Assembly: GCA_010405405.1 (NCBI GenBank)
Contig: MU004233.1
Location: 633,835 to 693,921 of the forward strand
DNA from: Microthyrium microscopicum
Lineage: Eukaryota
Reading direction: 5' to 3'
DNA: 60,087 bases
This document shows, piece by piece, positions 37,545 to 60,087 of this stretch. Each line of letters begins with the position of its first letter. Positions within the stretch are counted from its first letter, which is position 1. The translations under genes were made by a program, and so were the position numbers. The notes below the pieces were generated by a model. That model was given only the letters and a program-made list of their open reading frames with translations, ran no database searches and had not been told where the DNA came from.

Positions 37545-38337
37545 CTATTTGATCGTCACTTGAGTCTTTTTCCTCAGACCGTTCTTGTACTCATCAATGG
37601 CCTCCCCGTTCATGTAACCGTCGATATAACACTCTCCAACTAGTTTATACCTGAAGTTTGTTAGTAGAAGATTATGACCAAAAGCTGACATCCTCCTAGA
37701 GGAGCACCTCCAGAGATATACGGAAACCATCGCATGTAGTATCAGCCGATCACTCGATCAAATAATTGTTCCCTGACAGTCGCCCAACACATCGAACAAG
37801 CGATGTTTTAAAGAGCACAGAAGATGGCTGAGGAGTGGGCACTATAAGATAAACTCACCAGTTTTCGAGTGGACGCAGGACTACGGGCACCCTACATCCG
37901 AACAAAATCCAGACCTGATCTTCAAGTGAGGCAGTGTGCGGCCCCATCCCCAAAGCACCCTCTCGCGTGGTCATCAGACGTAGCTGATAGCGGTATATTT
38001 TTTCGCAAGCATGAATGGCGTATAGATGGGCGTCAGGACTCATCGCATTGAGATCAATTGGCGAATTAAGACTGGACGTCCAATCTAGTTGCCACTCCTC
38101 CAAGCTGCGACCTTGAATTACTACAGACTTGTTCATCGTCCACCATTCAAAGAAATCATAATTTGGATCCTTCGAGTCGTTGATGGCTCGAAGTAGAAGC
38201 TCATCAAAGCCCCCAATGGAGATATCCGGCTTCAACGGCATCTCTTGGAGTCTGTCGCACAAAATCGTTCTTCCAAGCGCGATCTTGAGATTTTCTCCGG
38301 CGCTGCACTGTCCAGACTCTTCAGTAAAGAGGGAGCA
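37545..38337 (-). pseudogene. 3' fragment of a HET-6-like heterokaryon-incompatibility gene, cut by a retrotransposon LTR
   Basis: LGRTILCD, RLMTTREGALGMGP...DQVWILFGCRVPVVLRP and W|YKLVGECYIDGYMNGEA (intron 37651-37858) are HET-6 C-terminal hallmarks. No 5' part is present before the LTR at 38338. Confidence 0.8.
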
Positions 38338-38483
38338 TGTAGTGAGACGAAGTCGTAGTAAGTAAGATGATAGAATAAGGAAGCTATCTAGCTTCTGATC
38401 CCTGAAGGGGATGGAATATCTATCTAACCCTAGCCCTACCTCTTTAGGAATAGGTAAGAGCTATAATTTAATGTTACGTATTA
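38338..38483 (-). repeat. Putative 3' LTR (~146 bp) of the Gypsy element
   Basis: On the minus strand it follows a polypurine tract (AGGGGGCAC), starts TAAT (read as RIP-mutated TGAT) and ends ...CACTACA at 38338. Confidence 0.6.
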
Positions 38484-40820
38484 GTGCCCCCTATAAAAGA
38501 AAGGATAAAGTCCGTTAAGACGTTCTTATTAGTTATAAAGCTAGAGAATATATAATAGAATTATATTAAAAGTTTATCTTATCTTAAGATACTTAACCTA
38601 TTTATTTTAAATTATAGAATCTATAATATTTTATAGTATACTCTTATTATTCTATATAATACTATTCTCTACTTTATATTTCTTAATAAGCTAAGCTTAT
38701 AGCTTATTTTATAGAATCTACTTAGAGTCTAAGTATAGTACGCCTTTAAGTAGTATAAAGTAACTCTAAATCTTCTTCTAGTATTTACTATATTCTATAA
38801 GTTTAGCTTTTTTATTAAGTAATTTAGTAATCTTAAAATAGTAATTATCTTACTTATACTAAGCTAGCTTAGGTTAAGAAGGAATCTTATAATTATAAGA
38901 ATTAATTTCTTTAGAAGCGAGTTTAATTTATTTAATAAAAATAATAAAGTAAATTACTAACTAGGATAGTAACTTTAATTCTACTATATTATTATAACTA
39001 TATATACTAATAATTTTATATAGGCCTTTATATAGTAATTTCTATTTAGTATTATTCTTATTAAGATTATAACCTTTTATTTTATAACCTTTTCCTTAGA
39101 TAAGATATACTTATATTCCTATATAGAGCTAAAGCTTTAGTAGTCTCTAGTTATTAGTAGTTTTTATTTAGAGGTTTATATAAGTAATTAAGTCTATAGC
39201 TTTATATTAATAAATAAGTCTTTACTAAATAAGATCTAGAACCTTATTTAGTATTAGACTTTAACTAGCTAATTCTAAGCCTATACCTAGGTTAAACCTA
39301 AAAAGAAGTTTATATAAGGTCTATTTAGTAGCTTATAATATTAAGGAGTTTAATTAGTAATATAGAGATAGAAAATATAAGACTTAATCTTTATATTCTT
39401 ATATAAGCTAGTATTATATAGTAATTTTAATAACTTAATTAGTTCTTTCTAACTATTTATCTAATTATAAGTAATATACTATTATAACTATAAGAGCTAT
39501 ACTAAGTATTATATATATTATAGTCTAGAACTAGCCTATAAACTTTTTATCTCTATTATAAATAATAGCTTAGGGAATTCCTTAAAGTAGCTACTAGTTT
39601 AGTAAAGTCTTTACCTACTAATTACTACTCTATATAATCTTTTTAGAAACTATATAAGTTATTTTTAAATATTTATATATATCTATAAGTATAGCATTAT
39701 ATTTTTAATACTTTAGCATAGCTATAATAAAATTAATATACTATATATAAAATAGAATTAAAGAATATTAAATTAGTTTTATATCTCTATATAGCTTATA
39801 TCTTACTATTCTTACTTTCTAGTAAATTAAGTAGTATATAAGATACTAACGTAAGTACTATACTAAGCTATAAATATAATAACTTTAAGTTATATAATAG
39901 TAAGCATAATAAAATTTATTATAATATTCTTAATTATATAAGAGTTTAAAAATATAAACTTAGGTAAACTTAGGAATTATAAGCCTTTTATACTTATTAT
40001 ATATATTAATATATTAAAGTAGCTTATCTATATCTCTAAAGAATTATATACTATATAAATCTTTTATAGATACTAAGTTATATAAGTTTTTTTAATAGTT
40101 ATCTTAGTAATAGCCTATAATTAGTACTTATTTAAAGTTATACTTTATAACTATAGTAGTTATATTATATATATACTTTTAGATCTTTTTAAGATTCTTC
40201 TTATTTTCTATATTTTTACTAGTAAGTAGTAAGTAAAAGAGAGCGTTAAGAATTATATTAAGCTTTTCTTTAATATAATAAATATCTAAGTTATATAACT
40301 ATAAATAGAATAAAGCTTACTATAAATATAAGTTCTATCTATCTATAGATATACTTTTAAGTATAGTCTATTTTAATATCTATATATTAGCTATATAGTC
40401 TATATAAATAATAGTTTATAAGGTTAGATAAATATATTCTTTAAGTTTAGAGATAGCTTAAATTAGTACTAAAATTTCTAGCTTTATTATCTAGTAATTT
40501 ACTTTAGCTTTTATAAGTATCCTTAATAAGAAGTAAAGAGTTTAAATCTTAAATTTCTTAATTTTATTATTTTTATCTAAATTACTTTATATATAGTATA
40601 TATAAACTCTAATACTTTTATAGCTTACGTTAACCTAAATATATAGTCTTTTCTTAGTATCTAAGAACGCTAATATTTTAGAGGCTTTTTTTTTAATAAT
40701 TAATTTAACTTTCTTAAAAGCTATAAGTATATCTTTATTAGGTATAATAGTTATTTTCCTAGTAAAGTTTAATTTACTAGTCTTTATCTTTAGATTATTA
40801 TAAAATAGATAAGTCTCCTC
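38338..40820 (-). mobile_element. RIP-inactivated Ty3/Gypsy (chromovirus-like) LTR retrotransposon, 3' half
   Basis: Minus-strand relic translation gives RNase H at ~40390-40680 (LYI*VNVS, YFLLRIL.KAKVNY*IIKLE, IIYIDY = VDAS/ELE/TDH) and an HHCC zinc finger at ~39790-39990. The integrase core at ~39280-39720 reads GIP*AIIYNRDKKF..F* and YYL*LDK*LERTN* (= YHPQSDGQSERTNQ). A chromodomain-like segment lies at ~38680-38800. Confidence 0.88.
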
Positions 40821-41161
40821 TATCGTGAAAAAATTATTATTGATTTGAGTTATTTAATAACACTATAACTACTTATTACTATAATACGTAGTTCTATATC
40901 TAAGTACTTAACTTAATATTTAATTCGTTTAAAATATATAGAATAATTAGAATAAATTTACTAATTTGAGATATATTAAATAGAAATGAGAACTAAAACT
41001 ACTTATAGCGTTTAAATTAATAAAATAAGATAAACTATTAAAGTACTTCTATAAAGCTAATAAAGAATATTCTTTAAATAAGATAAATAATTAGAATTCT
41101 TAAATAAGTCTAATATACTCTATTACTTAAGTAATATTAATAGCTAGAACTAGTATATATT

Positions 41162-42071
41162 NNNNNNNNNNNNNNNNNNNNNNNNNNNNNNNNNNNNNNN
41201 NNNNNNNNNNNNNNNNNNNNNNNNNNNNNNNNNNNNNNNNNNNNNNNNNNNNNNNNNNNNNNNNNNNNNNNNNNNNNNNNNNNNNNNNNNNNNNNNNNNN
41301 NNNNNNNNNNNNNNNNNNNNNNNNNNNNNNNNNNNNNNNNNNNNNNNNNNNNNNNNNNNNNNNNNNNNNNNNNNNNNNNNNNNNNNNNNNNNNNNNNNNN
41401 NNNNNNNNNNNNNNNNNNNNNNNNNNNNNNNNNNNNNNNNNNNNNNNNNNNNNNNNNNNNNNNNNNNNNNNNNNNNNNNNNNNNNNNNNNNNNNNNNNNN
41501 NNNNNNNNNNNNNNNNNNNNNNNNNNNNNNNNNNNNNNNNNNNNNNNNNNNNNNNNNNNNNNNNNNNNNNNNNNNNNNNNNNNNNNNNNNNNNNNNNNNN
41601 NNNNNNNNNNNNNNNNNNNNNNNNNNNNNNNNNNNNNNNNNNNNNNNNNNNNNNNNNNNNNNNNNNNNNNNNNNNNNNNNNNNNNNNNNNNNNNNNNNNN
41701 NNNNNNNNNNNNNNNNNNNNNNNNNNNNNNNNNNNNNNNNNNNNNNNNNNNNNNNNNNNNNNNNNNNNNNNNNNNNNNNNNNNNNNNNNNNNNNNNNNNN
41801 NNNNNNNNNNNNNNNNNNNNNNNNNNNNNNNNNNNNNNNNNNNNNNNNNNNNNNNNNNNNNNNNNNNNNNNNNNNNNNNNNNNNNNNNNNNNNNNNNNNN
41901 NNNNNNNNNNNNNNNNNNNNNNNNNNNNNNNNNNNNNNNNNNNNNNNNNNNNNNNNNNNNNNNNNNNNNNNNNNNNNNNNNNNNNNNNNNNNNNNNNNNN
42001 NNNNNNNNNNNNNNNNNNNNNNNNNNNNNNNNNNNNNNNNNNNNNNNNNNNNNNNNNNNNNNNNNNNNNNN
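41162..42071. other. Assembly gap (Ns)
   Basis: Run of N bases. Confidence 1.
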
Positions 42072-45000
42072 TTTAATATTTAAAATATTAAGAATATCTT
42101 TAATAACTTTAATGTCTAAAATATCTATCGTGTTTCTTATATCTACTATATTTATAATATTCTAGATACTAATATAGATATAATATAGTAGATAGCTCTA
42201 ATTACTATATATAGAGCTACTCTAGAAACTAGCCTTACTAGAATAATTACCTAAATATCTAGAATTATCTAGAATTATCTAGAATTATCTAAAAGAATTA
42301 AAAGCTCTTACTTATCCCTATTAGGATTAAATACTTTATTATATTATAGTATTAGATCTTAACTTTATAGACTATCTTATTATAGGCGTATTAAGATTAA
42401 GTTCTATAATGCTATACCCTTCTTATTATTATCTATAATCTATATCTCCTTCTTCTAGCTTAAGTCCTTACTTATAAGATAGAATAATAGGGCATAATTT
42501 AGATCTTTCTTATTATTAATAGCATCTATAATATCCTAAAGAGTTAGAAGGCTCTTAAGGTTTAGTAGCTTAGTTTCTATCTATCCTAGTTTAGTAAACT
42601 AAATATATATCCTCTCTAGCTAGTTCTTATTACTAGGTTCTATTTATATAATTTATTAGTAATTAGAGCCTATATATTTACTTAAATATATAAGACTTAC
42701 TTATTAGGTCTATATAATTAGGATTATTCTACTTATTATTTACTTTATACTTATTATTAGCTAAGAACTTACTATATAATACTACTTTCTTAGGCTATAG
42801 AGTATATCTTTTATATCTATATTGCTTATTAAACCTAGCTTTAGAACTACTTTACTTACGCCCTAAATATTATAGTAGCTTAAAGAAGTCTTAGTTCTTA
42901 TTATCTTCTTAAGTAGGTAGATTATAATTATCTTCCTATATAGGCTAAAATTTTGCCTAAATAATAATATTAGTAAGATTATTACTAGTTTTTTAAAGAA
43001 CGTACTTTATAAAGCTTATTAATATTATTATAGTTAGAAGTATATATATCTAATATTAGCTTTTATTACTCTTTATATTATACCCTAGTTTTATATAATA
43101 TAAGATCTTTAATAGTTTTTTAAATAAGTAAGCTCGTTTTTTATTTTAAATAAAGTAGTTATAAGTTCTATTATTTAAGCTATTTTTAATAACTTACTAT
43201 AGTTACTAGTTAGTATTATATTATTTATTTAATAACCTAAATTACCTTAACACGTAGGTAGGTTATACTAAAAATTATTAACTCTTTAAATAATAGTCTC
43301 TATATATAGCTTAATAAGTATATAGATATATATAATAAGTTTACCTAAAAATAGCAATTCTATAGTCTTTATAGCCTAGTAGTCTCTAGAATATTTCCTA
43401 CCCTAGCTAAGTATAAAGGTTTTACGCTTATAACTAATACGTAAATAAAATAGTAAGTTATTAATAAGAAAGGAGATTATCTTACTAGTAAATAATATAT
43501 ATTCTTAGAGGTATTATTAATATATAGTTATAATTTAGTCTTATTTAAAAATATAAACTTATATAAGGTTTACTCTCTTTATTTTTACTATACTTATATA
43601 ATTTAGTAAAGTTACTATCTTTTCTTAGCTACTTAGTAAACTTCTATACGTCTAGTTTCTTAATTTTAAGTAATCTTAAGAATATAGAGTTAAATAATAC
43701 TAATTAATATATATCTTACTTAGTCTAGATATTTAGTAATAATACTTTTAACTATTTAGATATAGTAATTCTATACTAACTAATATAGTACTATATCTAA
43801 GTAGTTTTTAAAATTAGCTAAATCCTATATATACTATATCTAAGAAGATATAAGAATAAACTTATATTCCTATAGAATTAGTTATACTTAAATATAGTTA
43901 GTACCTCTAAGATATTAATTACTATAGTTAGGAACTTAGGTAGCACCTCTTTTAAATATACCTTATAGTAATAGTTTTAAAGCTTATTACCTATTATACT
44001 TTACTTACTAGTACTATTTTAATAATTTAGCTAAGGATCTAAGTTATACTTACTATTAAGAGTAGCTAAGGTTAATTTATTTATAGTTAACCTAATAACT
44101 CTATTATTATATAAACCTTAGCTTAGTATAGGTTCTTATTTACTTTTCCTTATAGGTAAATATAAACTTTATAATAGACTAGATTTATTAATAAGATTAT
44201 TAGTATTATAATAATAAGCTTAGAGAGAAATAGTCATTTAAAGGCTATATATAGTTACTAAGGTATAGAAACTAGTAAACTAGATTATATAAATTATAAA
44301 GAGAGCTTATCTATATTTATACTATATATAAAGCAATTACTAAGAAGATAATTACCTAAGCTAGGAATAGATATTTAGTCTATATTAAAAGATAGTAAGT
44401 TATATATTTACGCTTATCTTAGTTTTTATAAATAGAAATAACTTAGCGTAGCGTCTTTATTACTTATAGCTTAAAAAGGGCTATAGTTAGAAAAATCTAC
44501 TTTAATACTATTATATTAGCTTATATATATAATAAAGTAGAAGCAAAATAGAATAAAAGAGATAGATACTAGTATATTATATAATACTACGTTATCTATT
44601 AAGCTTTTCTAAGTAATTACATTACTATAACTAATAAAATAAAGAGAAGAGGTTTCTAGAATAGTCTAAGACTTATATATCTATTAGTATTTATTAGCTT
44701 TTTAGATAAATCTAGATAAATAAATAATAGAAATACTTAGCTACTACTAAAAGACTTATCTAAAGTATTTATAGGTCCTATATCTTAGGTAGCTTTTAGA
44801 GCTTCGTTAAAAGTAGCGTTTAATACTATATAAGAATTACGACTTAGTTAATATTTAATAGGAATTATTCTTTTAGAAATTATTAAGCTAGTTTTTAGAT
44901 AGTTAAGTAAGCCTAACTTAGAGTTTAGGGCCTAGAGTTTATTAATACTTTTAGATTTATAAGTACTATTTCGCTTAATAATAGTACTTTTAACTTATAT

Positions 45001-47399
45001 TTATCTAGTTAGGTCTAAAAACTCTATTTATTTATCTAGCTAGTAAGTAATTATTATATTAGCTAATATTTAGTTTAGTAAGTATATTTAAAGTATATTA
45101 TATTAGTATTAGACATTTACTTTATAAAGTCTATTTTATTTTATTTATTATAGCTTAAAAGGTCTTAAGCTATAAGGTCTTATAATAGAGGTCTACTATC
45201 CCTAGTAAAGAAGAATATATAAATTAGAATCTAATAAAAGTAAATTATAAGTTAGAAAAATATACGTAGTAGTTTACTTAGCTTTATCTCTTTTTATACC
45301 TTAACCTTTATAAGCTTTTATAAGTTTATTCCTTATCTTACTTTTTATAATATTACTTTACCCTACTAAATTTATTATAATTTTATTAACTTAGTATAGG
45401 CTTATTTAAGAGGTTATATTATATATAAAACATATTATTAAGATTTAAATATTAAAGTAAAGTAGTAGTAAAAATCTAATAAGTATAATATTATAATAAA
45501 GATTACTAGGTATATAGGTATTTTAATAAAAATATATAATTAGTAGAACTTTAAATAAGTATAGTAGAGAATAAGAAGTAGATTATATAGAATAATAAAA
45601 AAAGAAAATAATATTTTAAAAGTTATACTATATAATGCATAAAAGATATTAATACTAGAACTAATTTTAGTAGCGTTTTTTATTACTTTTTAACTCTTAA
45701 CTAATATAATATATATTAAGTATATACGAAGGTTATATTCTTAAAACTCATTTAGCTATTATTATTAGTTCTTATTAAATAAGCTATTCTAAGGATTATA
45801 TAAAAGGGATAAGAGGAAGTAAGTTATATTAAGTCGTTTCTACGTTACGCTATATTAATATAAGAGGTTAAATTAAAGCAAATCGTAGGATTCTATTTAG
45901 CTATTACTTTCTATTATTATTAAATCTATTAATTTTAAGGCTACGTAAAAAGGGCTAAAGATTATTAAGTTGTACTAAGTAATTTCTATACTATGCTATA
46001 TTAAAGTAGAGGCTAGGTAGTAATTTTATATTATAAAATTAGGTTTAGCCTACTATTATATTTAATTATTATCTAATACGCTAATTATTATATATACTAA
46101 TTCTTAGGCTATATAAAAGGAGCCTAAGATTATAAGCTTATACTAAGCTATTTCTATATCTCTTTATATTAAAGTAAAGGCTAAGCATTAATTTATATTA
46201 TAAAGTTACGTTTAGCTATATTAATCTATATTATAAAGTCACGTTTAGCTATTACGTTAATATATTATTAAATATATAAGTAAACTTAAGTATTATATAA
46301 GATAAATAGAAGATTTATAGTTCGTAGTTAGTAATAATAAGATAAGCTAAATCTAAATAATTAGATAGAAGTTAGTATTAAACTTACGCTATTTCTTATA
46401 AGAACGTCTTAATCGTTACTCTATTAAGCTACTAAAAGTTTATATCCTTTTTTATTACTACTATACTACTATAATAAGTAAAATACTAACTATTATTATT
46501 ACTTCTTCTACGTAAGATAAGTTAATTATTTACTAAATTATTTTAAGAATACGTAAATATATTTAGCTATTAACCTTTACTAGCTAGAGTAAGCTTATCT
46601 AATTTATATAAAGAGATACTTTTAATAAAGAGGCTAGTATTAAACTTTTTAATTACTTTATTTAGATAACTAGTTTATTAGTAATTACTATTACGTTATT
46701 TTATAATAACTAGTTTATCTCTCTTAATTATAAGTAAGCTATAGAAGCTACCTTTATTACTAATTAAGTTAATATAGAGTTTAAACTTATAGAGTCTATA
46801 AGTCCTAAAGTACTATATTAGTTACTATCTTTATATATATTAATAAATAATAGTTAGATATTAGGTATTACTATACTTATAGTCTACGCTTACTTAATAA
46901 GTTTAGACTCTTTTATTATTATATAATAGTTTAATTTTAATTTCATATATTAAACTTAGTAAAATATTAGTTAACTATTATAGTACTAATTATAAGTACT
47001 ATTCTAACCTTCTATAGATAATTACTTAATCTATATATTATATAACTATCTACTTTTCTATAAATATAGTAGTAAATACGTTAACTATATATAGACTAGC
47101 TATACTTTAATAAGTTATATTAATTCTATAAAAACTTACTATAAGGTATATAAAAAGATACTAGAGAATAGTATTTTAATAATCTTATAATATATAAATA
47201 ATTCTCTATACGTACGAGCCTATTAGCTAGTTAATATTATTAGATAGAACCTAATATTTATAGTACTATAGAATACTATTTCTTAGTTAAATCCTACTAG
47301 TATATAAAGAATAAGTAATACTTTTTAGTTTTATTAAATAGGACTACTAAACTTAGCTAATATATGCTAAAAGTTTAATTAAGATACTTCTTTAATATT

Positions 47400-49620
47400 A
47401 GAATTACTAATAATTATTAACTCTAACTTATTAGATATTACTCTAGAGTTAGAGTTATAGACTTCTTTTATTATAAAGCTTAAGACTTCTATTAAATAAT
47501 TACTAGACTAGAAGTTATAATAAGCACCTTATTTTATAACCTTTATTAAATAACCTCTAGAACTAGAGTTATAAGCTTTATCTATTATAAAGCTTAAGAT
47601 CCTTATTAAATAAGCTCTAGACCTAGAGTTATAGGCTCCTTCCCTTATAAAGCTTAAGGCCCCTATTAAATAAGCTCTAGACCTAGAGTTATAGACTCCT
47701 TCTATTATAAAGCTTAAGGCTCTTATTAAATAAGCTCTAGGCCTAAAGTTATAGGCTATTTCTATTATAAAGCTTAAAGACTTTATTAAATAAGCTCTAA
47801 AGTATTTTATTAAAACTAAGTTATAATTATTTCTTTAACCTAAGATAAAAGCTAGCTCTTAAGTTTTATTAGAAGCTTCTATTAAGCCTAACATAGAGCT
47901 ACTTTTTAATACTAAGCTTAAAGTATTTTTTAAAGCTAAAATAAATACTACTATATTAGGAACTAAAATATAGCTTAATCCTTAGATATCTAACGAACCT
48001 ATACTTAATTAACCTATAGTATTATCTACTATTTATACTAAGTAGCTAATAGACTTTAAACGCTATTAACTTAATAAATATATATAAACGTATTAAGAAG
48101 GTAACTAGTTTATTATATAAAAGTAATAAAATAAATAACGCGCCTTAAAAAGTAAGAAAGTACCTAAACTAAAGCTAGGGTTTAGATTAATATATATAAG
48201 GATTTAATATCTAAAGCTAACCTATTCTACTAGGCTATTAAGATCTAATACTAATTTATTTTACCTAAAGAACGTTTACTTTATTAACTATAAAGTTATA
48301 AAGCTAAGTTTTAATTTAGGAATTAAGTATTCTAATATACCTTAGTATCTTATTTATAATAATTAACGTTATACTTCATTCTAATTATTAATATATTTCT
48401 TAGATTAAAGAGAGAAGAAGAACTTATAATAGTCTAAAGATTACGTAGTAATAAATTATATTTTATCTCTTAATTTATTTTATTACTTTAAATTTAGTAG
48501 TCTATTGCTTAATTAATATAGCACTATTAATTACTTTATAAAATAAGACCTTACTATTAATAGGAGTTCTTTTTATTTAATTAAATTTATAAAAAAGTAA
48601 GAGCTCTTTATATTACTTATACTTAAAGAACTCTTTAAAAAACTTAATTATAGTATTATAATTTAGAGTATTAGCATTTTTTCTAGAACTATTATAGCTA
48701 CTATTTATAAACTTTCTATAGTCTAGAGCATAAATATAGTTACTTACTATCTTATAAATATATATTTATATATCTATAACTACTAAGAAGGAGTTAGAGT
48801 CTAGAAGTATATATAGCTATACCTTAGGTTATATATTACTATAATCTTAGGATTATTTTAATTCTCTTAGCCTTAAGCTTTAAGAAGATACTAGTAGAGT
48901 TTTATTAGTAATAAACCCTATCTATTATTAATAGATAATTAAAGTTAGAATAAAAGTTTACTTATATATATTCTAAATTTAGGCTTTTATTTATTTCTAT
49001 TAGCGTATATTTTATTAGTAATAGTAAACTAATATAAGAAGCAATCTTTATTATTTATCCTTATATATAGCTTTATTATATCTTATACTTAGCTAACATA
49101 ATCTTCTAATATATAAATGGCCTTATTTAGCTAGTAGTTATATACTTAGATATTATATAATATTAGTAATTATCTCTTACTTTTCCTTATATATATTATA
49201 GTTATTAAGACTATAGTATAAGTCTTAAAGTTACTTCTTTATAGCTATAGCTAATTAGATATATTTATTTAAGTTTATATTAAGTCGTTATATTAGCTCC
49301 TCCTTAGTTATATTTAAATACTTTTTTAAGCTATCCTACTATCTAGCTATATTATCTTTTAAAAGTCTAATTGTAATATAGAGGAGTTATTAAGTAAAGA
49401 GAATAGTATAAAATTAAAGTTAGAATAGGGAGAATATACTAAAGATTAATAATAAGTATATTATAAAAATTAAGAGTTATAAATTTATTATAATATAGAA
49501 AGGAGAATATAAAGAAAATATACTATAGTAGTACTTAAATAGTTAGAAATACGTTATTATTTAGAACTACGCGCTACTTATAACTAAATTTATTAGTTTT
49601 AAAAGCTTATATATTAAGCT
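47400..49620 (+). pseudogene. RIP-destroyed long ORF of unknown product (contains the 60-bp repeat)
   Basis: One plus frame reads as plausible protein when TAA/TAG are treated as former CAA/CAG/TGG/CGA. Boundaries are approximate. Confidence 0.4.
47450..47800 (+). repeat. 60-bp tandem repeat, ~5-6 copies, probably a former coding repeat
   Basis: Unit TATTAAATAAGCTCTAGACCTAGAGTTATAGGCTCCTTCCCTTATAAAGCTTAAGGCCC recurs every 60 nt. Reverse-RIP reading is approximately PIEQAPDPESQAPSLVELEA. Confidence 0.85.
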
Positions 49621-51349
49621 TATAAATATCTTTATGCTATTAGAAAAAGACTTATAGACTTATATCTAGGTTAGTAGTTATAGTTAGATTATATTTACGT
49701 ATAAGATATAAAGTAAGTAGTAGTATTTAGCATTAATAATATAATAAAGTAAATATTCTTTAAGATTATATAAGATATTTCTAGAAATTTCTAGACTTAT
49801 CTAGATTTTCTAGACTTTTCTAGATATACTATTATTTAAGATTTATATGCTTTTAGGAAAGGTTACTTTATAAATATATCTATAGCTTAGAATTACTACC
49901 TTTATATTCTTTATATTATAATATATAGTACTATAGATTTTATTCTCTAATATAATAAATTAGCTAATAATTATAATTATTTTAATATTATAGGGTTATA
50001 ACCTCTACGTTACTATAGTTTTACTTTATAACTTATTATTTAATATATTTACTATACTTAGATAGTAACTAAGTCTAGTATATGAATTCTAAGAAGTAAT
50101 ATTTATTTTAGATATAGTTAAAATATTCTATACTCTATTATAATAGAGGTCTAAATAATAGATCGTTTCTAACCCTTTCTAGTAACTAGCCTCTTATATA
50201 TTAATATCTTATAAACTTTTATTATTAACGTAAGATTTCTAGTAATAACTTACTTACTAGTTTTATAATTTAAGGAATTATATATTTATAAAATAAACTA
50301 TACTTATTAAGATAAAGAGAGTTATATAGGTAATAGTTTAGATATTCTAGCTTGTTTATTATTAGCTCTCTATATTTAAAATAATTAATAGCTATATAGT
50401 TTTACTTATAGGATTACTATCCTTATTCTTATTAAGTTAAGGAATATTAGTACTAAAAGATATATCGTAGTAATAAAGCCTTTAATTATAATCTTCTACT
50501 TCTAAAAGTAAATCTATAGTAATAGCTTTAGGTTTAATAACTCTAATAAATTAATAAAAGGATTAGTAATTATTATTATTATTTTATTCTTATTTAAAAG
50601 TAAGGTAAGTAAATTAAGAGTACGCTATAAAGCTTAAGAACTATCTATAGCTACCTATACATAGTTACTACTATATAATAAGTTTATCTTAAATAGGTAT
50701 TATTATAGACTTTAATATAGCTAGTTTACTTATAATTAGTATTAATTAAATAATAAAAAGTAGTATAAATAAAATAGAAGTCTAATAGCTATTTTATATA
50801 AAGTAGACTTATAATAAGATTACGTTTTTTCTTTACTATAGTAGTTAAAAGCCTTAGTATATTACCTAAGATACTACGTTACGTTCTAAATTCTATATTA
50901 TATAATCTATTATAAACCTTATAGCCTCTTATAAACGTAATTCTACTAAATACTTTATTTATAAAGTGCTAGAAATAAGTACCTAAGTATATATAATTTT
51001 TAATATTTTTTAAGTTATTCCTACTAAGGTAAATAAGAGGTATACCTACTTAGAAATAAATAGAAATAATATAAAAAGAAAATATAATATACTTAAATAT
51101 TTTAGATTTAATAACTCTAGTTAATATTATACCCTCTTAATAAGAATTAAAAGCTTTTCTATTTTTAATAAATAATAATATTTCATAATATAGACTAGGT
51201 TATACTAATTAATCTATAAAGCGTACTAATAAAACTAAATAGTAATAATTACTATTTAGTTCTTTACTTAAAGCGTTAACCTCTTCTATTTTAATTTTTA
51301 GCCTAAATATAATTAATAGTAATAATTTAGACTTTTATTACTCTTAAAT

Positions 51350-52400
51350 TATTATATTAGCTTAGTTTTATAGCTAATTATAATAGTTTAGTTATTCTTT
51401 ATATTTACTTACTATATCTCTTCTTCTTTTATCTTTTATTCTACTTATTCTTTTTTCTCTTCTTTCTTCTTTTCTTATTCTTTATTCTTTTTACTTATAA
51501 TCTTTTTCTTCTCTTCTTTCTTTTTATTTACTATTTTAAGATATAGATAGAGAAGGTAGTAGTAATAGTCTTAATATAGTAAATAGTTTTATAGCTAAGA
51601 TTTATTTTATCTTAATAGACTCTACTCTTCCTTCCTTAAGGATAATATCTTAATCTTTATATTAACTAATATATATTTAATATAAAGGTATAGTTACTAT
51701 AGATAAGAAAAAATAAGTAGTAGAAAAAAAGATAAGAAGCCTTAAAGCTTAGTAGTAATTTTAAGTTTAAAACCTTATATAACTTTTTTAATAGTTAATT
51801 AGATTCTTAGATTTTAAAAGTAATAAAGTAATCCCTTCTATTAAATATATCTATAGCTTAAGATTCTATTTTCCTTAATTACTACTTTTAATTACTATCT
51901 CTCTTATAACTTATCCTATTATTTACTATATATTTCTTATAAATAAGTATATTTAGAATATTTAAGGTTATATTAGAGAGCTCCCTAATATAGAGATTAG
52001 AACCTTTAAAATAAGAAAGTATAGATAAAGAAAATTATTTAAGCTTTTAAAGCTAATATTATTAATTAACTTTAATATAGTAACTATAGATTCTATATAA
52101 TAACTTTTAGTTTCTACCTAATAAAGAGTATTTTATATCTTAAACTCTAGGCTTTCTTAGCCTCTTTAGCTACTACCTTAACCTTATTTTTAAGTATAGT
52201 CTTCTCTAATAAGTTAGTAACTTCTTTTACCTTAGCTTTCTCCTTTAACTAAGCCTTCTTTATAGCTTTCTTTATAATCTTCTTTATATACTTCTTTATC
52301 TTCTTTACGTTCTTTAGTTTCTTTATATTCTTAGCTTTTAAGTAGAAATATAAAATATAGTAAACCTACTCTTAGTAGAATAGATAATTACGCAACTATA
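51350..52400 (-). pseudogene. RIP-destroyed Lys/Glu-rich coiled-coil ORF(s)
   Basis: CT-rich plus-strand tracts at 51400-51540 and 52150-52340 read as AAG/GAA-rich codons (KKAIKKA*LKEKAKVKEV) on the minus strand. Confidence 0.4.
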
Positions 52401-53899
52401 ACTTTATATTTATAGAATAATTAGTCTATACTTAATTATTCTAGAGAATTATAGTTCTTACTCTTAATTTTATTTATATCTTAAATATTACTTTACTCTT
52501 CCTTAAACTTCTTAAAAATTAGCCTAAGGTGCTTTAAGTAGGTCTAATTAAAGCATAGTAGTACCTATTTAAGTAAATCCTAATAAGAGATATAAGAGGG
52601 ATAAGTTGCTATAATTAGAATAGGTATATATTAAAGTATATATCTAAATAAAGCCTATTATAGAGAAGTATAATTATAGTTAATGCATTAGGATTAAACG
52701 CTATTTAAATTTAGATACTATATTAGGTTTTTTAAGATTTATATATTTATATAAGCCTATTAGATTTATAAAAGCTTAACTAAGTTTATAGATTATCTTA
52801 GTATAAAAGATAATATAATATTTATAGTTATTAGTAGTAGACATAATACTAAAATAAATAAAGATATTAAGTATAAAGATAAAGTTAAATAAGCAAGCTA
52901 AGAATTAAAACTAGTAATAATTATTATAAGTAAGTCCTAGATTTAGATAGTAAAGTTACTTAGACTAGTAGTTTATTATTAAAGTTATAAAAAGATATAG
53001 CCTTTCCTATCTAATTAAATAGAACTTAATACCTTAAGTTTAAGCCTTCTTAACCTTTAGTTCCTTATTTTTATCTTTTTCTATCTTTCTCTCCTTTATT
53101 ACCTTTTTCTTAGCCTTTAAATATAAATAAAGTAGATAATAGAATTAATCCTAATAAAGAAAGTAGTTACGTAGCTAAATCTTTTCTAATTTATCTAAGT
53201 ATATTAATAATGCTAGTATTATAATATAGTATAATTTACTAATCTTCTACTAATAGAGATAATAAATTTACTTATAGAAAAGCTAAAATTAAAGGATTAA
53301 ACTATTAATTTTCATTTTTAAGGAAGTTCTAATATTATAAATAAATAGAAGGAAAATTAGTAGAATACTCTATTAGAATATTAGCTTAGATTATTAATTA
53401 CTTAATAATATAAATAATATAGCTTTATAATTCTTCCTAAGCTCTTTACCTAAGATTCTAGTAAGAGCTATAAAAACTAATAGTACTATATTATTTACTT
53501 TATAAGTTAATATTACTAAGAAAAAAAAATATAAATAAAATAATATTTATAAATAGATATAGCTAGGTTATATCTTATAAATATACGCTAGAAAATATTT
53601 AGCTAAATAAATACTCTATAAGCTATAAGGCGTTATTATTTATTCTTATTATTCTTCTATCTCTCTCTAGATTCTTTTAGCTATTAGATATATCTATTAG
53701 TCTAGTTAAGATATTTAAATTTACTATAAAAGCGCATTTTATATATTAATAATAATAATATTAACTTTAAGTATATTTTCTAATATCTTATATTATTAAT
53801 AATTTAATAGTAGTACTTTAACCCTTACTATAAACTAAACTAATTATATATAAAGTTATTTATTAAATTTATTATCTCTAGGCTTTATCTTAATTATAA

Positions 53900-56800
53900 C
53901 TAAACTCTTTTTAATATTTTAGTATATATTATTTTTAATATTCTTTAGGTATTTCTATATCTCTTCTATAAATAGAAAAGCTAGGGCTTCCTTAGGTTAG
54001 GACACTAATTTAGTTAACTTAGGCTAAGTTAGTCTTAATTTAAGATATATCTATAAATCCTTAAGTCTTATTAGTTATACTACTTAATTTTTAGAATAAG
54101 CCTTTATAAAACCTATAGTATTTAATTAAAGCTTATTAATATTCTATAATAGTATATTAATTAGATTATTATTTAAGTATAATACGTTAATTAAGATATA
54201 CTTTACTATATTACCTACTTAAAGAACTCTTCTAATACCCTAAGTCTAATTACTTAGTAATATTAGAATAGATATTATAATTAGATACTTTACTTACTAT
54301 TAGTTACTTTTAGTACTATAACTACTATACATTCTAACTAAAACCTAAATATTCTTATTAAAGAGGTATTTACCTACTCTTAATAGCATTTAACTACTTA
54401 TAGTAGACTTTAGAATATTTTAGAAAAAGTAATAGATATTAGCTTTATTACGTAAAGATAAGCTAGTTCTTAAATAGCCTACTTTAATTAAAAATAACTT
54501 TTTACTTAATATACTAATTTTAGTAAAATAAAGTACTTAGAGATTAAATTTCTTAATTATATATTAAAGCGCTATTATAATTATACTAGCAAAAGTAAAA
54601 TACTTTATAATAATTAAGACCTTACCTTATTATAAGCTTTATTCCTTTTACTTTTTATTAAGAAAGTACGTTTCTAGGTTAGTATAGACTTTTTTAATAA
54701 TCTTTATTACGTACTATATTTAAGCGCTTATCTTTAAAAACTAAAAGGCTTTTTTAATAAAAAGATTATCTTTAAACTTAGCTAGTTTCTTAGAGTTAAG
54801 CTTTAGAAATAGGCTACTATTAATTCTTACTAGTATATAATAAAGATTATCTTTAGTTTATCCTTTAATTTTCTTTACTTATTTTAATATTAATAGATAA
54901 GGCACCTTAATAATAAGTTTATAATATATAATCTTAGTAGAGGTTTAGTAGACTATATAGTTAGCTAGCTTAGCTTATATCTATTTAGCTTAATATAGTT
55001 TACTTTTATACTAAGTACTAGAGTTATTAATAATAGTTATCTTTAGTTTATTTATTTACGCCACTATATATTTATTAAGCTTATTTATAAGCTATATTAC
55101 TTCTAAGTCTATTATATTAATAATAATAAGCCTTATTTTATTTAAAGGTAGCATAATACACTTTTAATTAAAAAGCTCTATATCTATTATATAGCAGAGT
55201 TTAAATAAGGTATATATATTAGCTAAAGTAGTACTTACTTAAACTTATTCTCTTATAAGCTATTTCTCTTCTCTTTTATTAAAATACTTACGTAATCTTA
55301 TATCTTTCGTAATAAGTATAGTAATCTAACTAGAAATAATATTAAGTAATAAAAAGGTAAATAATATATAGTTATTAATAAAGATTACCTAATCTTTCTT
55401 TAATTCCTATTTAAGAAACTCCTTAATATCTTTATTAGTATTAAAGAAGTAAATATATTATATATTCGCTAAGTAAGTAATTAGGTTTAGTTAGCTTACT
55501 ATAGTATTATAATATATCTTAAATTAACCTAATATAGTAGCTCTAGACTATATACTATAATAGTACTTTAATAATATATAACTAAGTATATAGGTTTCTT
55601 TATTAATATTAGAATAAGTTAGGTTATTTAGTATTTAATATCTATAAAACTTATTTAAAACTAAGACTTTAACTATAAAGTATTTTTAACTACGTAGGTA
55701 TTTATCTCTATTTACTACTAATTCTATATTAGTATAGAGGTAGTTCTTAGGTTTTAGAGTTCTATAATATTTAGTTTTCTATTTTTCTAACTACGCTTAT
55801 AAAAGTCTTATAATTAGTTATAAAACTTAAGATATATATAAACCTAATATTATTAGTATAATAATACTAGTCTGCTTAAGTATTCTAAAATTAGTTTTAA
55901 AATTAGTAAAAAGTCTATACGCATAGGAGACTTTATTTAGAAATATAAACTTAGGTTTTATGCTTAAATAGTTAATATAGAGGGTAAATACCTAGTTAGG
56001 CTTACTTTTATATTTTAAGGTATTAATTACTTTTTCTTATTCGTTTAACTAAACTAAGATTATAGATATAATTATTTATATATAGTTTATATTAATAGTA
56101 AGAGTACTATACTAGTAGTTTTTAGAATTAATATAAGTTATAGTAGATTTTAATTATACTAGTAATTTCTTAAAGTAATAATATATTATAAGTTAGTTAA
56201 GACTTTTTAACTACGTATAAGGACCTTTCTCTTTATTTTTAAAGCCTTAATAATTAAGAACCTAAATATCTAATAGATATCTCTTAAGAAGCTTAGGTTT
56301 CTTTTCCTTTATAAGGCGCTACTTCTTTATATATATTACTATACTTTTAATTTATTAACTATTTATCTAAATAGTAACTAGTATTTAGATAGTCTTCCCT
56401 AAGCCTAGAACGTTTATAATATAAAGGCTTTATATAAGAATAATATACTTATATATAATTATTACTCTAATAGCTTAATAAATTTAAATATTAACTTTAA
56501 ATTTAGGAATAATAAAGTTTAATATATTATTCTTATCTTTATAGTTAAAGAATACGTATATTTCTCTTTAGTCTTTAAGTATTAAGTATTTATAAGTTTT
56601 ACTTTATAATAATCTTATATAGAAGCTTATAGTAAAGAAAGCTTTTAAATCCTTATCTTTAACTATTTTAGACTCTCTATATTCTATATATATATTATAA
56701 AATAGTTTAGCTTATAAAGCTTTAGTATATAGAGCTTTACCTATTATAGAAGACTTAAGTATAATAGATTTACGTTTAGTATAGTTAAAGTAGTTAATAA

Positions 56801-58800
56801 GAAAACTAGTTTATTCTTAAATATATTTATTTTTAGAAGTCTTTAGCATATAAAAGCTAATAGTATTAAGTATTAGTTTATATATATTAGATAAATAAGA
56901 TTTAATTTATTTCTTATAAGCTTATTATATATTAATTCTTACGTTACTATCTTTACTATTATAGTTATACTATTACTTATTCTTATAAAGTTATAACTCC
57001 TAGAAATATTTTATTTCTATACTACGTAATATATTTACTTTATTCTATAAAGAAGATAGTAAGTCTAATAATTAAGATTTAGATAGTATAGTAACCTTTT
57101 TTATAATTAAATTAATTACTTTAGTAGCTATAGAGTTATCTAGTATAGTAATATCTTTCTTAGTTAAGTCTTTAGTATTTATAGAAATATTTACTATAAG
57201 TAGTAATAATTCTAAGTTATTAATAGTAAAATTAATAATATTTATAGCGCTAGTAAGATTAATAACGCGCTTAGAAGAACTTAAAGGTTTAGTATAGCTA
57301 GAAGAAAATAGCTTATTTTAAAAAGATAGCATAGTTAGAAAAGCTAGCATATTTAGAGAGCTATAGCGTTTTCTTAAGTAATTAAGAAGGAGTTTAGCTA
57401 TTATTAGATAACTTAATTTTTATAAGGTAAAAGGTAATATAATATAATCTAGAGTAGTAGAATTAGGTCTCTATAAATAACACATTTTAGATAGATAATT
57501 AATATTTATAGAAATTAACACTTATACTTTGCTATTTCTTATCTATATATTACTAGTAGGAGGCTTAAAGCTTTAAGGTTACGTAAGTCTATTACTATCT
57601 AGAGGTAGTACTTAATCTTATTATATACTCTCTATCTCTAGCTTAATAACGCGCTCTTTAAGTCCTTAAAAAGATATAGTAGTAGTATTTATAGGTCTAG
57701 CGCTATCTAGAAGTAATACTTAATCTTATTATATACTCCTTATCTCTAGCTTAATAATACACTCTTTAAGTCCTTAAGAAGATATAGTAGTAGTATTTAT
57801 AGGTCTAGCGCTATCTAGAAGTAATACTTAATTTTATTATATACCCTTTATCTTTAGCTTAACGACGTACTCTTTAAGTCCTTAAGAAGATATAGTAGTA
57901 ATATTTATAGGTCTAGCGCTATCTAGAAGTAGTACTTAATCTTATTACATGCCTCCTATTTCTAGCTTAATAATAGGCTCTTTAAGTCCTTAAGAAGATA
58001 TAATAGTAGTATTTATAGGTCTAGCACTATCTAGAAGTAGTACTTAATCTTATTATATACTCTCTATTTCTAGCTTAATAATACGCTCTTTAAGTCCTTA
58101 AGAAAATATAGTAGTAGTATCTATAAATTTAGTACTATCTAGAAGTAATACTTAATCTTATTATATACTTCCTATCTTTATATTAGTAGTAGTATTCTAA
58201 GGCTATAATATTTAGATTAATAAGCTTAAAGGAGTATAATATTCTTAGCTACTATTCTTATTAATTGCTTCTAAGATTAGAATTAATTTTGTCTTTACCT
58301 TCTTACGTTTAGACTTACCTCTATTTTTTCTACTAGATAGGCTTATTTATACTAAAGTTTATTATTCTTTATAATTATAAGAACTAGATTTATTCTTAAA
58401 TTTCTTTCTATTTATAGATACTAAAAGATTATAACTACTACTAACTTTTTCTATATTATTCTTATTATTATTATACTTTTACTTTATTCTACTAGATAGT
58501 ACTAATAGAAATTCTAAGTTTTTCTCTTTAGAATTATCTAGATTATTATTTAACTCTATTTTAGAATCTTTAACTAAGCTATCTTTAGAATCCTTATTTA
58601 AGCTATCTTTATTATCTTTAGTAACCTTACTATCTTTATTATTTTTAATAACTTTACTATTTTTATTATCTTTAGTAACCTTATTATCTTTATTAAATTA
58701 GTTAAGAATAAAATCTTTATATATATTATATTTATACGTTAATAGTTTAGTAATAAAGGTAGATTAAGTAGTTAGCTAAGAATCTATATAAGGTTAAGTA
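53900..58800 (-). pseudogene. RIP-destroyed SNF2-family (SF2) helicase/ATPase with long repetitive N-terminus
   Basis: All motifs lie in one minus frame. Motif I is NVLGLGKTI* (GLGKT at 56391-56405) and motif II is VLVLNKFY = LDEFH (~55645). Motif III is SRAT = SGAT (~55540) and motif IV is GKVLII (~54615). Motif V is VLVRMYSSYSTKSN (~54320) and motif VI is *GIRRVL*VGN = QGIGRVLRVGN (54210-54242). Ends are approximate. Confidence 0.8.
57595..58175 (-). repeat. 108-bp (36-codon) tandem repeat, ~5.3 copies, in frame with the SNF2 relic
   Basis: CTATCTAGARGTARTACTTAAT recurs at 57595, 57703, 57811, 57919, 58027 and 58135. Confidence 0.92.
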
Positions 58801-59344
58801 TAAGGTTTCTTATTACGTCTATTTTAAAATAAAGAAGAAGAGCTTAAAGTAAAAGTAACTAAGGTTTTATACTTTTATTTATTAGTATAAGTTTTCTTTA
58901 AAAAAGATTTAACCTAAATAACTTTAAAAACAATTTTTCTTAACCTATAGAGATTATTATAAATAACTCTAGTAAAATTATATATATCTAAACTTATTAA
59001 AATAGTTTAATTATCCTATACTTAACTTATATTATGAATTATATTTAGATTTTTAGATAGGTCTAACTTTAAGCTTATTATATCTTTAAAGTACTTTATA
59101 TTAATTTTAACTATATATTTATAGATATTTATATTTATTTTAGATAAGTTAAAGGAGCCTAGTTTATATATATCTTTTAAGTCTAGTATAACCTATTTTT
59201 ATAAAGAGTCCTTAGTAAATACTAGTATAATTATATTAAAGTCTTTACTATCTTAAGCATTAGTTTCTTAAAAAATAGATAAGGACTATTAGGTTTTATA
59301 GTATTTCTTTAAAGTAGGCTTTTTTTTTTTAATTATATACGTAT

Positions 59345-59512
59345 AGAAGGGTCTAGTAAAGCTAAAGAAGGTAGCTAAGTAAATCTAGATAGTATATAGC
59401 TATTACTAGAGGTATATATATAAAATTAGAAAGGGTCTAGTAGAGCTAAAGAAAGTAGTTAGATAAATCTAAGTAGTATATAGCTATTACTAGAGATATA
59501 TACATAAGATTA
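59345..59512. repeat. 84-bp direct repeat, 2 copies
   Basis: GGGTCTAGTARAGCTAAAGAA at 59349 and 59433. Confidence 0.8.
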
Positions 59513-60087
59513 GCTATATTATAGTATATTACTATAATAATTTTCTAAGGTACCTTAAAAAAAGTTATTATTACCTTTATTAGTATAGCTTAGTACTATA
59601 TTTTTATTAGTATTAAATTACTATAAAGTTTAATATAAGCTATAGCTATTAGGACTTAGCTAAGGTAGAATTATACCTCTAAATCTAAATATTATAAAGT
59701 TATACTAAGTTAGGTTACGCTATATAGATAGTAAAAGTTATATTTTATAATAGCTAGGCTACTACTATAGTTAATAGTAGATATTACTATTTTAAAAGCC
59801 TAGTAGTAGCATTATATAGCCTTAGTATCTATATTAGTTAAATAAAAGATAAGACGTAGCTAAACTTAGGCTATTACTCTATAGTTATAGTACGTTTAGT
59901 AATATGCTATTAATAGAGTTTAAATAGTAAGTATAATTTCCTTATAGTCTATTTATAGTTTTATAAGGCTAGTTAGGAAGCTAGGAATAGTATAGCTAAT
60001 ATCCTCTAAAAGTAGAATTACTATATATATCTTTATTATTAAATATTATAAACGCTTAGGTTATTTATAGAATAATTAGAATTATAT

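Follow-up and report, generated by a model that had tools for sequence, protein, structure and literature searches.

We analysed a 60,087-nucleotide stretch of the Microthyrium microscopicum genome (GCA_010405405.1, contig MU004233.1, positions 633,835 to 693,921 of the forward strand), hereafter the window, in which positions are counted from the first base. The window is gene-rich, with a GC content of ~47%, up to ~38.3 kb, beyond which lies a block altered by repeat-induced point mutation (RIP). Within this block, 40821..60087 is occupied by the left part (19.3 kb) of an element of the Plavaka type with terminal inverted repeats (TIRs), which measures 43,247 bp (C4:674,655-717,901) and runs past the window end. 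On the minus strand of the element, at 53850..59370 with approximate ends, we located a RIP-destroyed long open reading frame (ORF) of ~1,840 codons, which reads as an ATPase of helicase superfamily 2 (SF2) resembling SNF2 proteins and possesses a long N-terminal region. The carrier is an unusually large variant of a Plavaka/CACTA-type transposon with an element-specific SNF2-like ATPase.

A minus-strand gene wrecked by RIP

Over 1,795 codons, the minus-strand frame (that of base 60,086) contains 137 stops, compared with 225±18 stops per frame in dinucleotide shuffles, for which the minimum across 200 shuffles was 167. The antisense frame of the same phase has 137 stops as well. A RIP-aware codon likelihood favoured the minus frame in 19 of the 19 scoring windows between 53.7 and 59.4 kb, and its coding signal spans from ~59,370 to ~53,850. 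The gene is thus longer than the ~1,600 codons that an earlier note on this DNA had claimed for it. The uninterrupted phase over ~5.5 kb suggests that the frame had few or no introns. Within the 1,253-codon core (53,802–57,560), the window copy contains 61 TAA, 33 TAG and no TGA stops, and all nine full copies in the genome keep the register without any net indel. The stops are thereby explicable by RIP, and the absence of a frameshift between helicase motifs I and VI, both of which the earlier note had reported, was confirmed.

The state of the ORF block is that of heavily RIP-mutated DNA, with a GC content of ~20%, a TpA/ApT ratio of ~1.6 (composite RIP index ~1.6) and CpA plus TpG nearly missing. 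Differences between the copies of the core amount to 12,449 transitions versus 248 transversions (36 pairs, 3,759 bases). The transversion divergence among the copies is merely 0.18%, which points to a recent burst of amplification, followed by RIP. The N-terminal part contains in-frame tandem repeats at 57595..58177 on the minus strand (5.4 units of 108 nt, or 36 codons), of which the unit number apparently varies among the copies, as indicated by split matches. We conclude that the minus-strand frame is a real gene, wrecked by RIP mutation. Two 84-bp direct repeats (59347-59513) were observed just upstream of the frame, inside the gap that separates it from a divergent long ORF.

The 43-kb element carrying the gene

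We found the SNF2-like ORF at 11 sites across the genome, with 87-92% identity and always inside copies of one element. Out of these copies, at least 11 in number, five were compared over the whole element and nine over the ORF core. Outward from the ORF, the copies are collinear over ~43 kb and then end sharply. Eight copies, with sizes of 42,722-49,401 bp, have 20-bp inverted repeats at both ends, and the SNF2-like ORF is carried by all eight. The left TIR of the window copy (40821..40840, plus strand) begins with CATCG in the least mutated copies, the first C being T here. The dinucleotide TC at 40819..40820 (plus strand) precedes it as a 2-bp target site duplication (TSD), the second copy of which follows the right end. 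The flanking dinucleotides are the same in seven of the eight copies (TA five times and TC twice), and the eighth has GC and GT, one C/T apart. TA alone is weak evidence for a TSD in RIPped DNA; it is the TC, TT and AA cases that carry weight. An empty site is also available, because the element interrupted an older RIPped retroelement, the left part of which remains at 38325..40820 with 157-bp direct repeats. In the uninterrupted copy of this retroelement (C9:~1,072,000-1,079,750), the TC dinucleotide is present once. Pol-like motifs of the retroelement were seen by eye only, and it gave no Pfam match.

The Plavaka transposase domain PF18759 was detected in five of five copies, with a best E-value of 1.4e-6. 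The match in the window's element scored 28.3 bits (cut-off 26.3) and covers profile positions 36-195 of 325; a second coding segment was also seen. A search with PF18759 across the same genome found nothing, because RIP defeats its initial screening step. Counted from the window start, the transposase lies beyond the window at ~67.8-71.5 kb, preceded by an Upf1-like ORF at ~62-67 kb. A Plavaka (CMCT/EnSpm-related) transposon is recognized by PF18759, TIRs and TSDs of 2 or 3 bp, all of which were found, and further by a DDE triad with C(2)C and H(3-4)H motifs. We are confident that the SNF2-like gene was part of a mobile unit. All copies of the element that we have seen are RIP-destroyed.

Some structural features of the element were observed in passing. 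The copy on contig C2 has an extra insert of ~7.3 kb at 341135-348477, bringing its total to 49.4 kb. A run of N at 41162-42071, ~340 bp inside the left end, occurs at the same place in the four other copies examined. The right end of the element has 110-bp subterminal repeats nearby, and its right 5 kb (~78-83.5 kb from the window start) contains dispersed direct repeats of 170-430 bp and a 360-bp tandem duplication.

Identity and origin of the encoded protein

To read the helicase motifs, we took their codons directly from the nine copies, and all positions given here are on the minus strand. The Q-motif and motif I form a block at 56367..56522, with GLGKT at 56,405-56,391, which aligns nearly without gaps to SNF2 profiles and in which GLGKT is intact in some copies. 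Motif II lies at 55644..55667 (core 55,658–55,644), where its pre-RIP reading is DESH: the D is present in six of the nine copies, Ser (TCT) in four, and the E and H follow from invariant AAG and TAT. Motifs I and II are the highest-scoring sites for matrices derived from the host's own SNF2 motifs, motif II with 9.0 bits. A possible motif IV at 54603..54626 is the second-best site with 3.6 bits, and a possible degenerate motif III at 55533..55553 was read from the codons of the copies. The motif V-VI block (54207..54353) extends over 48-50 gapless columns against SNF2 C-lobe profiles. Motif VI reads Q-G-A/T-(G/R)-R-V-L-x-V/A-G-N without a preceding WNP, a form known from non-SNF2 SF2 helicases. 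The earlier note had placed motifs I to VI in their correct order in this frame. Motifs I and II stand as top sites and the V-VI block could be placed weakly, but Ia, III and VI were not recovered by the host-derived matrices where they had been read. The motif forms that had been taken for divergence changed, too: 'DEFH' is RIP damage to DESH, and the 'I' of 'QGIGRVLRVGN' is encoded by ACT or GCT in five of the nine copies, hence A/T.

Because the gene is RIP-destroyed in every copy, we used a RIP-aware comparison, in which RIP was calibrated on a segment of the element with an un-RIPped host counterpart and plausible pre-RIP readings were then sampled. In this calibration, RIP was fixed in all five copies at 251 of 292 sites for CpA, 131 of 170 for CpG, 22 of 231 for CpC and 15 of 347 for CpT. 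The RIP-aware reading matched a host SNF2 profile with an E-value of 3e-4, the top among 37 sequences. In HHalign, the Q-motif/motif I block (N block) was aligned over 44-52 columns with scores of 37-40 and E-values of 4e-4 to 2e-3, and off-frame and shuffled controls reached at most 22.8. Against its shuffles, the N block scored 37.1 versus 16.6±1.9 (maximum 19.8, n=10), ~10 standard deviations (SD) above them. The C block, downstream of the N block, scored 22.0 versus 15.0±2.5 (maximum 18.6). The best C-lobe match was the V-VI block, with scores of 16-22, in the position where these motifs had originally been read. When the host SNF2 ORFs were aligned singly, most of the 22 had their best match in the motif I region; for two Rad5/16-like ORFs, it was in the V-VI region. 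The score against an Upf1 template was lower (24.2), and replacing host SNF2 profiles by viral or prokaryotic ones brought no gain in score.

Several results weigh against the SNF2 assignment. A stop-tolerant reading, with stops as X, gave no Pfam SNF2 or Helicase_C match; it was blank in PHROGs, PDB sequences, a word-indexed protein set and 1.84 billion representatives, and had a single irrelevant match in NCBIfam (E 0.47). RIP-aware hidden Markov models found no significant match among 254 host ORFs, the RIP-aware consensus reached at best -1.7 bits against the 22 host SNF2 ORFs, and a whole-domain SNF2 profile match was not obtained. An off-frame control reached 21.9 on the C-lobe profile. 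The canonical motif III (TGTP/SATP) is unreadable from the codons of the nine copies, the spacing between motifs I and II is long (an insert giving ~250 codons), and the ordered-motif score of 32.9 lies ~2 SD above a null distribution of 18.1±6.6 that extended up to 45.1. The blank stop-tolerant searches are weak evidence, since the raw readings of three host SNF2 genes likewise lost their profile match after a simulated, harsher RIP. The profile search proposed in the earlier note was accordingly blank in its stop-tolerant Pfam form, but in its RIP-aware form placed the N block far above the controls and the C block at control level.

Compared with SNF2-family ATPases (PF00176 plus PF00271), the ORF shares a motif I of the form GLGKT, the Q-motif at the distance from it that is typical of SNF2, a DExH motif II and, with weak support, a V-VI block in register. 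It differs from them in the missing whole-domain match, the non-canonical motif III and residues before motif VI, where WNP is expected, the long insert between motifs I and II, the 36-amino-acid repeats and the lack of an orthologue among the host genes tested. We consider that the ORF probably encodes an SF2/SNF2-type ATPase, as suggested by support at the motif level only, and do not file it in the SNF2 family. That the gene belonged to a mobile unit and also encoded such an ATPase is, taken jointly, likely.

For the relation to host remodellers, 30 loci were drawn from the 39 PF00176 matches in the genome, and 22 ORFs of at least 560 amino acids were scored; nine weak PF00176 matches and 11 ORFs under 560 amino acids fell outside this comparison. 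When RIP was simulated on the host SNF2 genes, 22 of 22 found themselves at 840-1,980 bits and 20 of 22 matched a paralogue at at least 37.8 bits. As judged from sequence comparison, the SNF2-like ORF is not a copy of any of the 22 host remodellers tested. This result, together with the occurrence of all 11 places in copies of one element, bears out the idea of an element-specific protein rather than an orthologue of a conserved host remodeller. The ORF is as distant from canonical SNF2 subfamilies as two host outliers. Among the host remodellers, the SNF2-like ORFs L155:493-3033 and L153 were observed to be strong outliers, and a search with the former against longer proteins found no relative.

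Four other explanations have to be weighed against an element-borne SNF2-like gene. Two of them are practically ruled out. The motifs could be chance readings in AT-rich RIP debris without any gene: a stop may stand for Q, W or R and an A/T for G/C, so that motifs are easily seen by eye, the antisense frame is equally stop-poor, and the database searches were all blank. However, the depletion of stops went beyond 200 of 200 shuffles, one frame was consistently the best along the ORF, the N block stood far above its shuffles, and raw readings of real SNF2 genes lose their match after simulated (harsher) RIP, too. Such a chance origin has next to no probability. It is also extremely improbable that duplication of a chromosome segment copied a host remodeller such as Snf2, Rad5, Rad16 or Rad54, which RIP then mutated, without any transposon being involved, as the 26-kb X3X3R8 repeat of Stagonospora nodorum has been interpreted (PMC3017866, in the part of the text available). 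The element has TIRs, TSDs and a transposase as well as an empty site, and the ORF matches none of the 22 host genes scored, even though every one of these still recognizes itself after simulated RIP.

The two remaining explanations concern different steps and are not mutually exclusive. A helicase-like gene could have been captured once and have ridden along as passive cargo without serving the transposon. The element does hold DNA in common with an un-RIPped host locus: its segment at 51091..53740 (minus strand) matches C6:1,998,741-2,001,387 with 70% identity, ~85% of the differences being C>T/G>A, and about half of the element has no clear coding signal. On the other hand, the DNA search that found this host match gave no host source for the ORF, the 22 host SNF2 ORFs were ruled out as its source, and the frame was kept over ~5.5 kb without a phase change. 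We regard passive carriage as rather unlikely. Alternatively, the encoded P-loop protein might belong to a different SF2 family, be it restriction-type, XPB/UvsW-like or viral-type, or might be a pseudo-ATPase in decay, with a resemblance to SNF2 at motif I only. This would agree with the Q-motif/motif I block being the sole one clearly above the controls and with the form of motif VI. The spacing from the Q-motif to GLGKT and the 49-column V-VI block nevertheless fit SNF2 profiles gaplessly, the templates compared being SNF2 and Upf1. Membership of another SF2 family seems to us unlikely.

Proposed role, known relatives and other content

In the cut-and-paste mechanism that we propose, by analogy with the Plavaka/CMCT family, a DDE transposase would have recognized the inverted termini of the CATCG type, to which it bound, cut out the complete unit and integrated it through cuts staggered by 2 bp, and may also have moved the ~870-bp non-autonomous elements that share these ends. 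The ATPase could have acted as an accessory factor by ATP-driven moving or stripping of nucleosomes or bound proteins on the element, which would allow the element to be expressed and its far-apart ends to be reached. The Upf1-like helicase, encoded in divergent orientation, might act on the RNA-silencing side. The repeated insertion of a bounded unit with 2-bp duplications and its later destruction by RIP are, by contrast, observed. Accessory genes that modify chromatin or DNA are described from other Plavaka elements (bioRxiv 10.1101/2025.02.11.637652; PMC12730594; from the available portions of both). Service to the element's own mobility or to anti-silencing is a tentative proposal for the ATPase, somewhat short of an even chance. 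More speculatively, the element could represent a hitherto undescribed lineage of Plavaka giants (20-45 kb) in ascomycetes with a conserved counter-silencing kit, namely an element-specific SNF2-like motor and an Upf1-like RNA helicase, which also captures host genes. If true, fungi would harbour, besides Starships, a second class of giant elements with cargo, driven by a DDE transposase and concealed by RIP erasure. At least eight moves of an entire 43-kb unit imply that a DDE transposase can mobilize cargo of Starship size in fungi. An SNF2-like motor carried by a transposon, if true, would add a type of accessory factor not known before and offer a testable way in which elements resist heterochromatin. 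These implications are bounded by the facts that every copy seen is dead and that the family and role of the ATPase rest on weak alignments.

Starships are likewise giant multi-gene fungal mobile elements, and they use a tyrosine recombinase captain located at one end. The present element encodes a transposase of the Plavaka type and has TIRs as well as 2-bp TSDs of variable sequence; its ends and transposase point away from a Starship. Closer relatives are found among the PlavakaB families of the CMCT clade, for which 2-3-bp TSDs and CATCA..TGATG termini are described in the accessible text (PMC12730594). The present element shares with them the PF18759 transposase, short TIRs, a 2-bp TSD, the CATC start and the carriage of an accessory gene with a role on chromatin or DNA, which is TET/JBP in PlavakaB and putative in the present element. 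It differs in its CATCG terminus, its 43 kb and its apparently RIP-competent ascomycete host, whereas PlavakaB begins with CATCA, the one consensus seen measures ~10 kb and the Plavaka families of that paper come from Agaricomycotina, as far as the accessible text tells. In that text and one supplement, 'SNF2' occurs 0 times and 'helicase' once, for a Helitron. The CATCA terminus was not matched in our element, CATCG of the least mutated copies being alike in four of five bases; on present sequence evidence, it appears PlavakaB-like, and we do not file it as PlavakaB.

Giant Plavaka elements of 17.4-19.1 kb are described from the red alga Bostrychia moritziana (bioRxiv 10.1101/2025.02.11.637652). 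In the portion of that report available, they resemble the present element in being giant Plavaka elements with several accessory genes, for which an action on chromatin is proposed, and with internal tandem repeats. Their cargo is different, consisting of PAG1-3 (adenine methylase/SET, ParB/2OG oxygenase), and 'helicase' occurs 0 times in that portion. With the enlarged algal En/Spm elements of 16-20 kb (PMC6431247, likewise consulted as a partial text), the largest Plavaka/EnSpm relatives that we found described are about half the size of the present 43-kb element. X3X3R8 of Stagonospora nodorum is similarly a large, multi-copy RIPped repeat, in which Rad5/SNF2-like helicase genes were found by deRIP. 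It was read as a duplicated endogenous cluster, the passages available mention no transposase, TIR or TSD, and the likeness is one of description (PMC3017866). Our results suggest re-examining such large 'duplicated gene cluster' repeats. Sly1-1 of Neurospora crassa, also an ascomycete TIR/TSD transposon of the CMC superfamily with a second, divergently transcribed gene and RIPped copies, differs in being 11.5 kb with two genes and, in the text available, no reported helicase (PMC4592977). In the open-licence PubMed Central and bioRxiv literature, cargo of the SNF2 or Upf1-like kind was not found in any Plavaka/CACTA element, and the accessible parts of PMC5751038, PMC11152077 and PMC13547354 added nothing to the comparison.

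The second helicase candidate, the Upf1-like frame, comprises ~1,680 codons on the plus strand beyond the window and is followed by the transposase; it and the SNF2-like frame diverge from a ~2.6-kb gap. Its motif I-Ia block scored 34.2 against host Upf1/Sen1-type proteins (E 0.003), with off-frame controls at no more than 19.7. The stop-tolerant reading of this putative SF1B helicase had no match in PDB or in Pfam, where AAA_11/AAA_12 would be expected. A shorter coding-like stretch at 46300..48000 (plus strand) contains six 60-bp tandem repeats. The segment shared with contig C6, just downstream of the SNF2-like frame, is a tandem set of short Cys-rich ORFs. The host locus has at least four tandem short ORFs with the motif C-x2-C-x4-C-H-x2-C and a Lys/Glu-rich tail, none of which gave a Pfam match above the cut-off. 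The host copy was observed to have escaped RIP despite approximately eleven repeats of its sequence.

Neither the TIR 20-mer, searched in viral and metagenome contigs, nor the transposase alignment, compared with proteins and metagenome contigs, revealed an intact relative of the element outside this genome. Among sequencing runs, matches came from four DNA data sets of a single study, possibly the source sample itself, and from no RNA data set among those listed. Their contigs differed by RIP-type changes only, in both directions, at an 80% threshold below which an un-RIPped copy would lie, and we base no conclusion on these runs. Within the genome, we found short elements with the same ends: six of 872-874 bp with matching TSDs, one of 2.8 kb with a matching TSD and one of 714 bp with a non-matching TSD. 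The non-autonomous elements of ~872 bp lie on contigs C2, C3, C5, C7 and C14, and some are less RIPped than the giant copies. Weak 72% DNA matches to the SNF2-like ORF on contig C3 were rejected, as they fall in a ~10.2-kb tandem repeat and the comparison gave compositional noise only. This tandem repeat is itself RIPped, with units 97% alike; we guess that it may be degenerate ribosomal DNA. To the left of the RIP-mutated block, at 1-38460, the window contains genes that we take by eye to be housekeeping genes, presumably encoding a cullin, coatomer alpha, and Atg7-like, Rft1-like, cutinase-like and GH6-like proteins.

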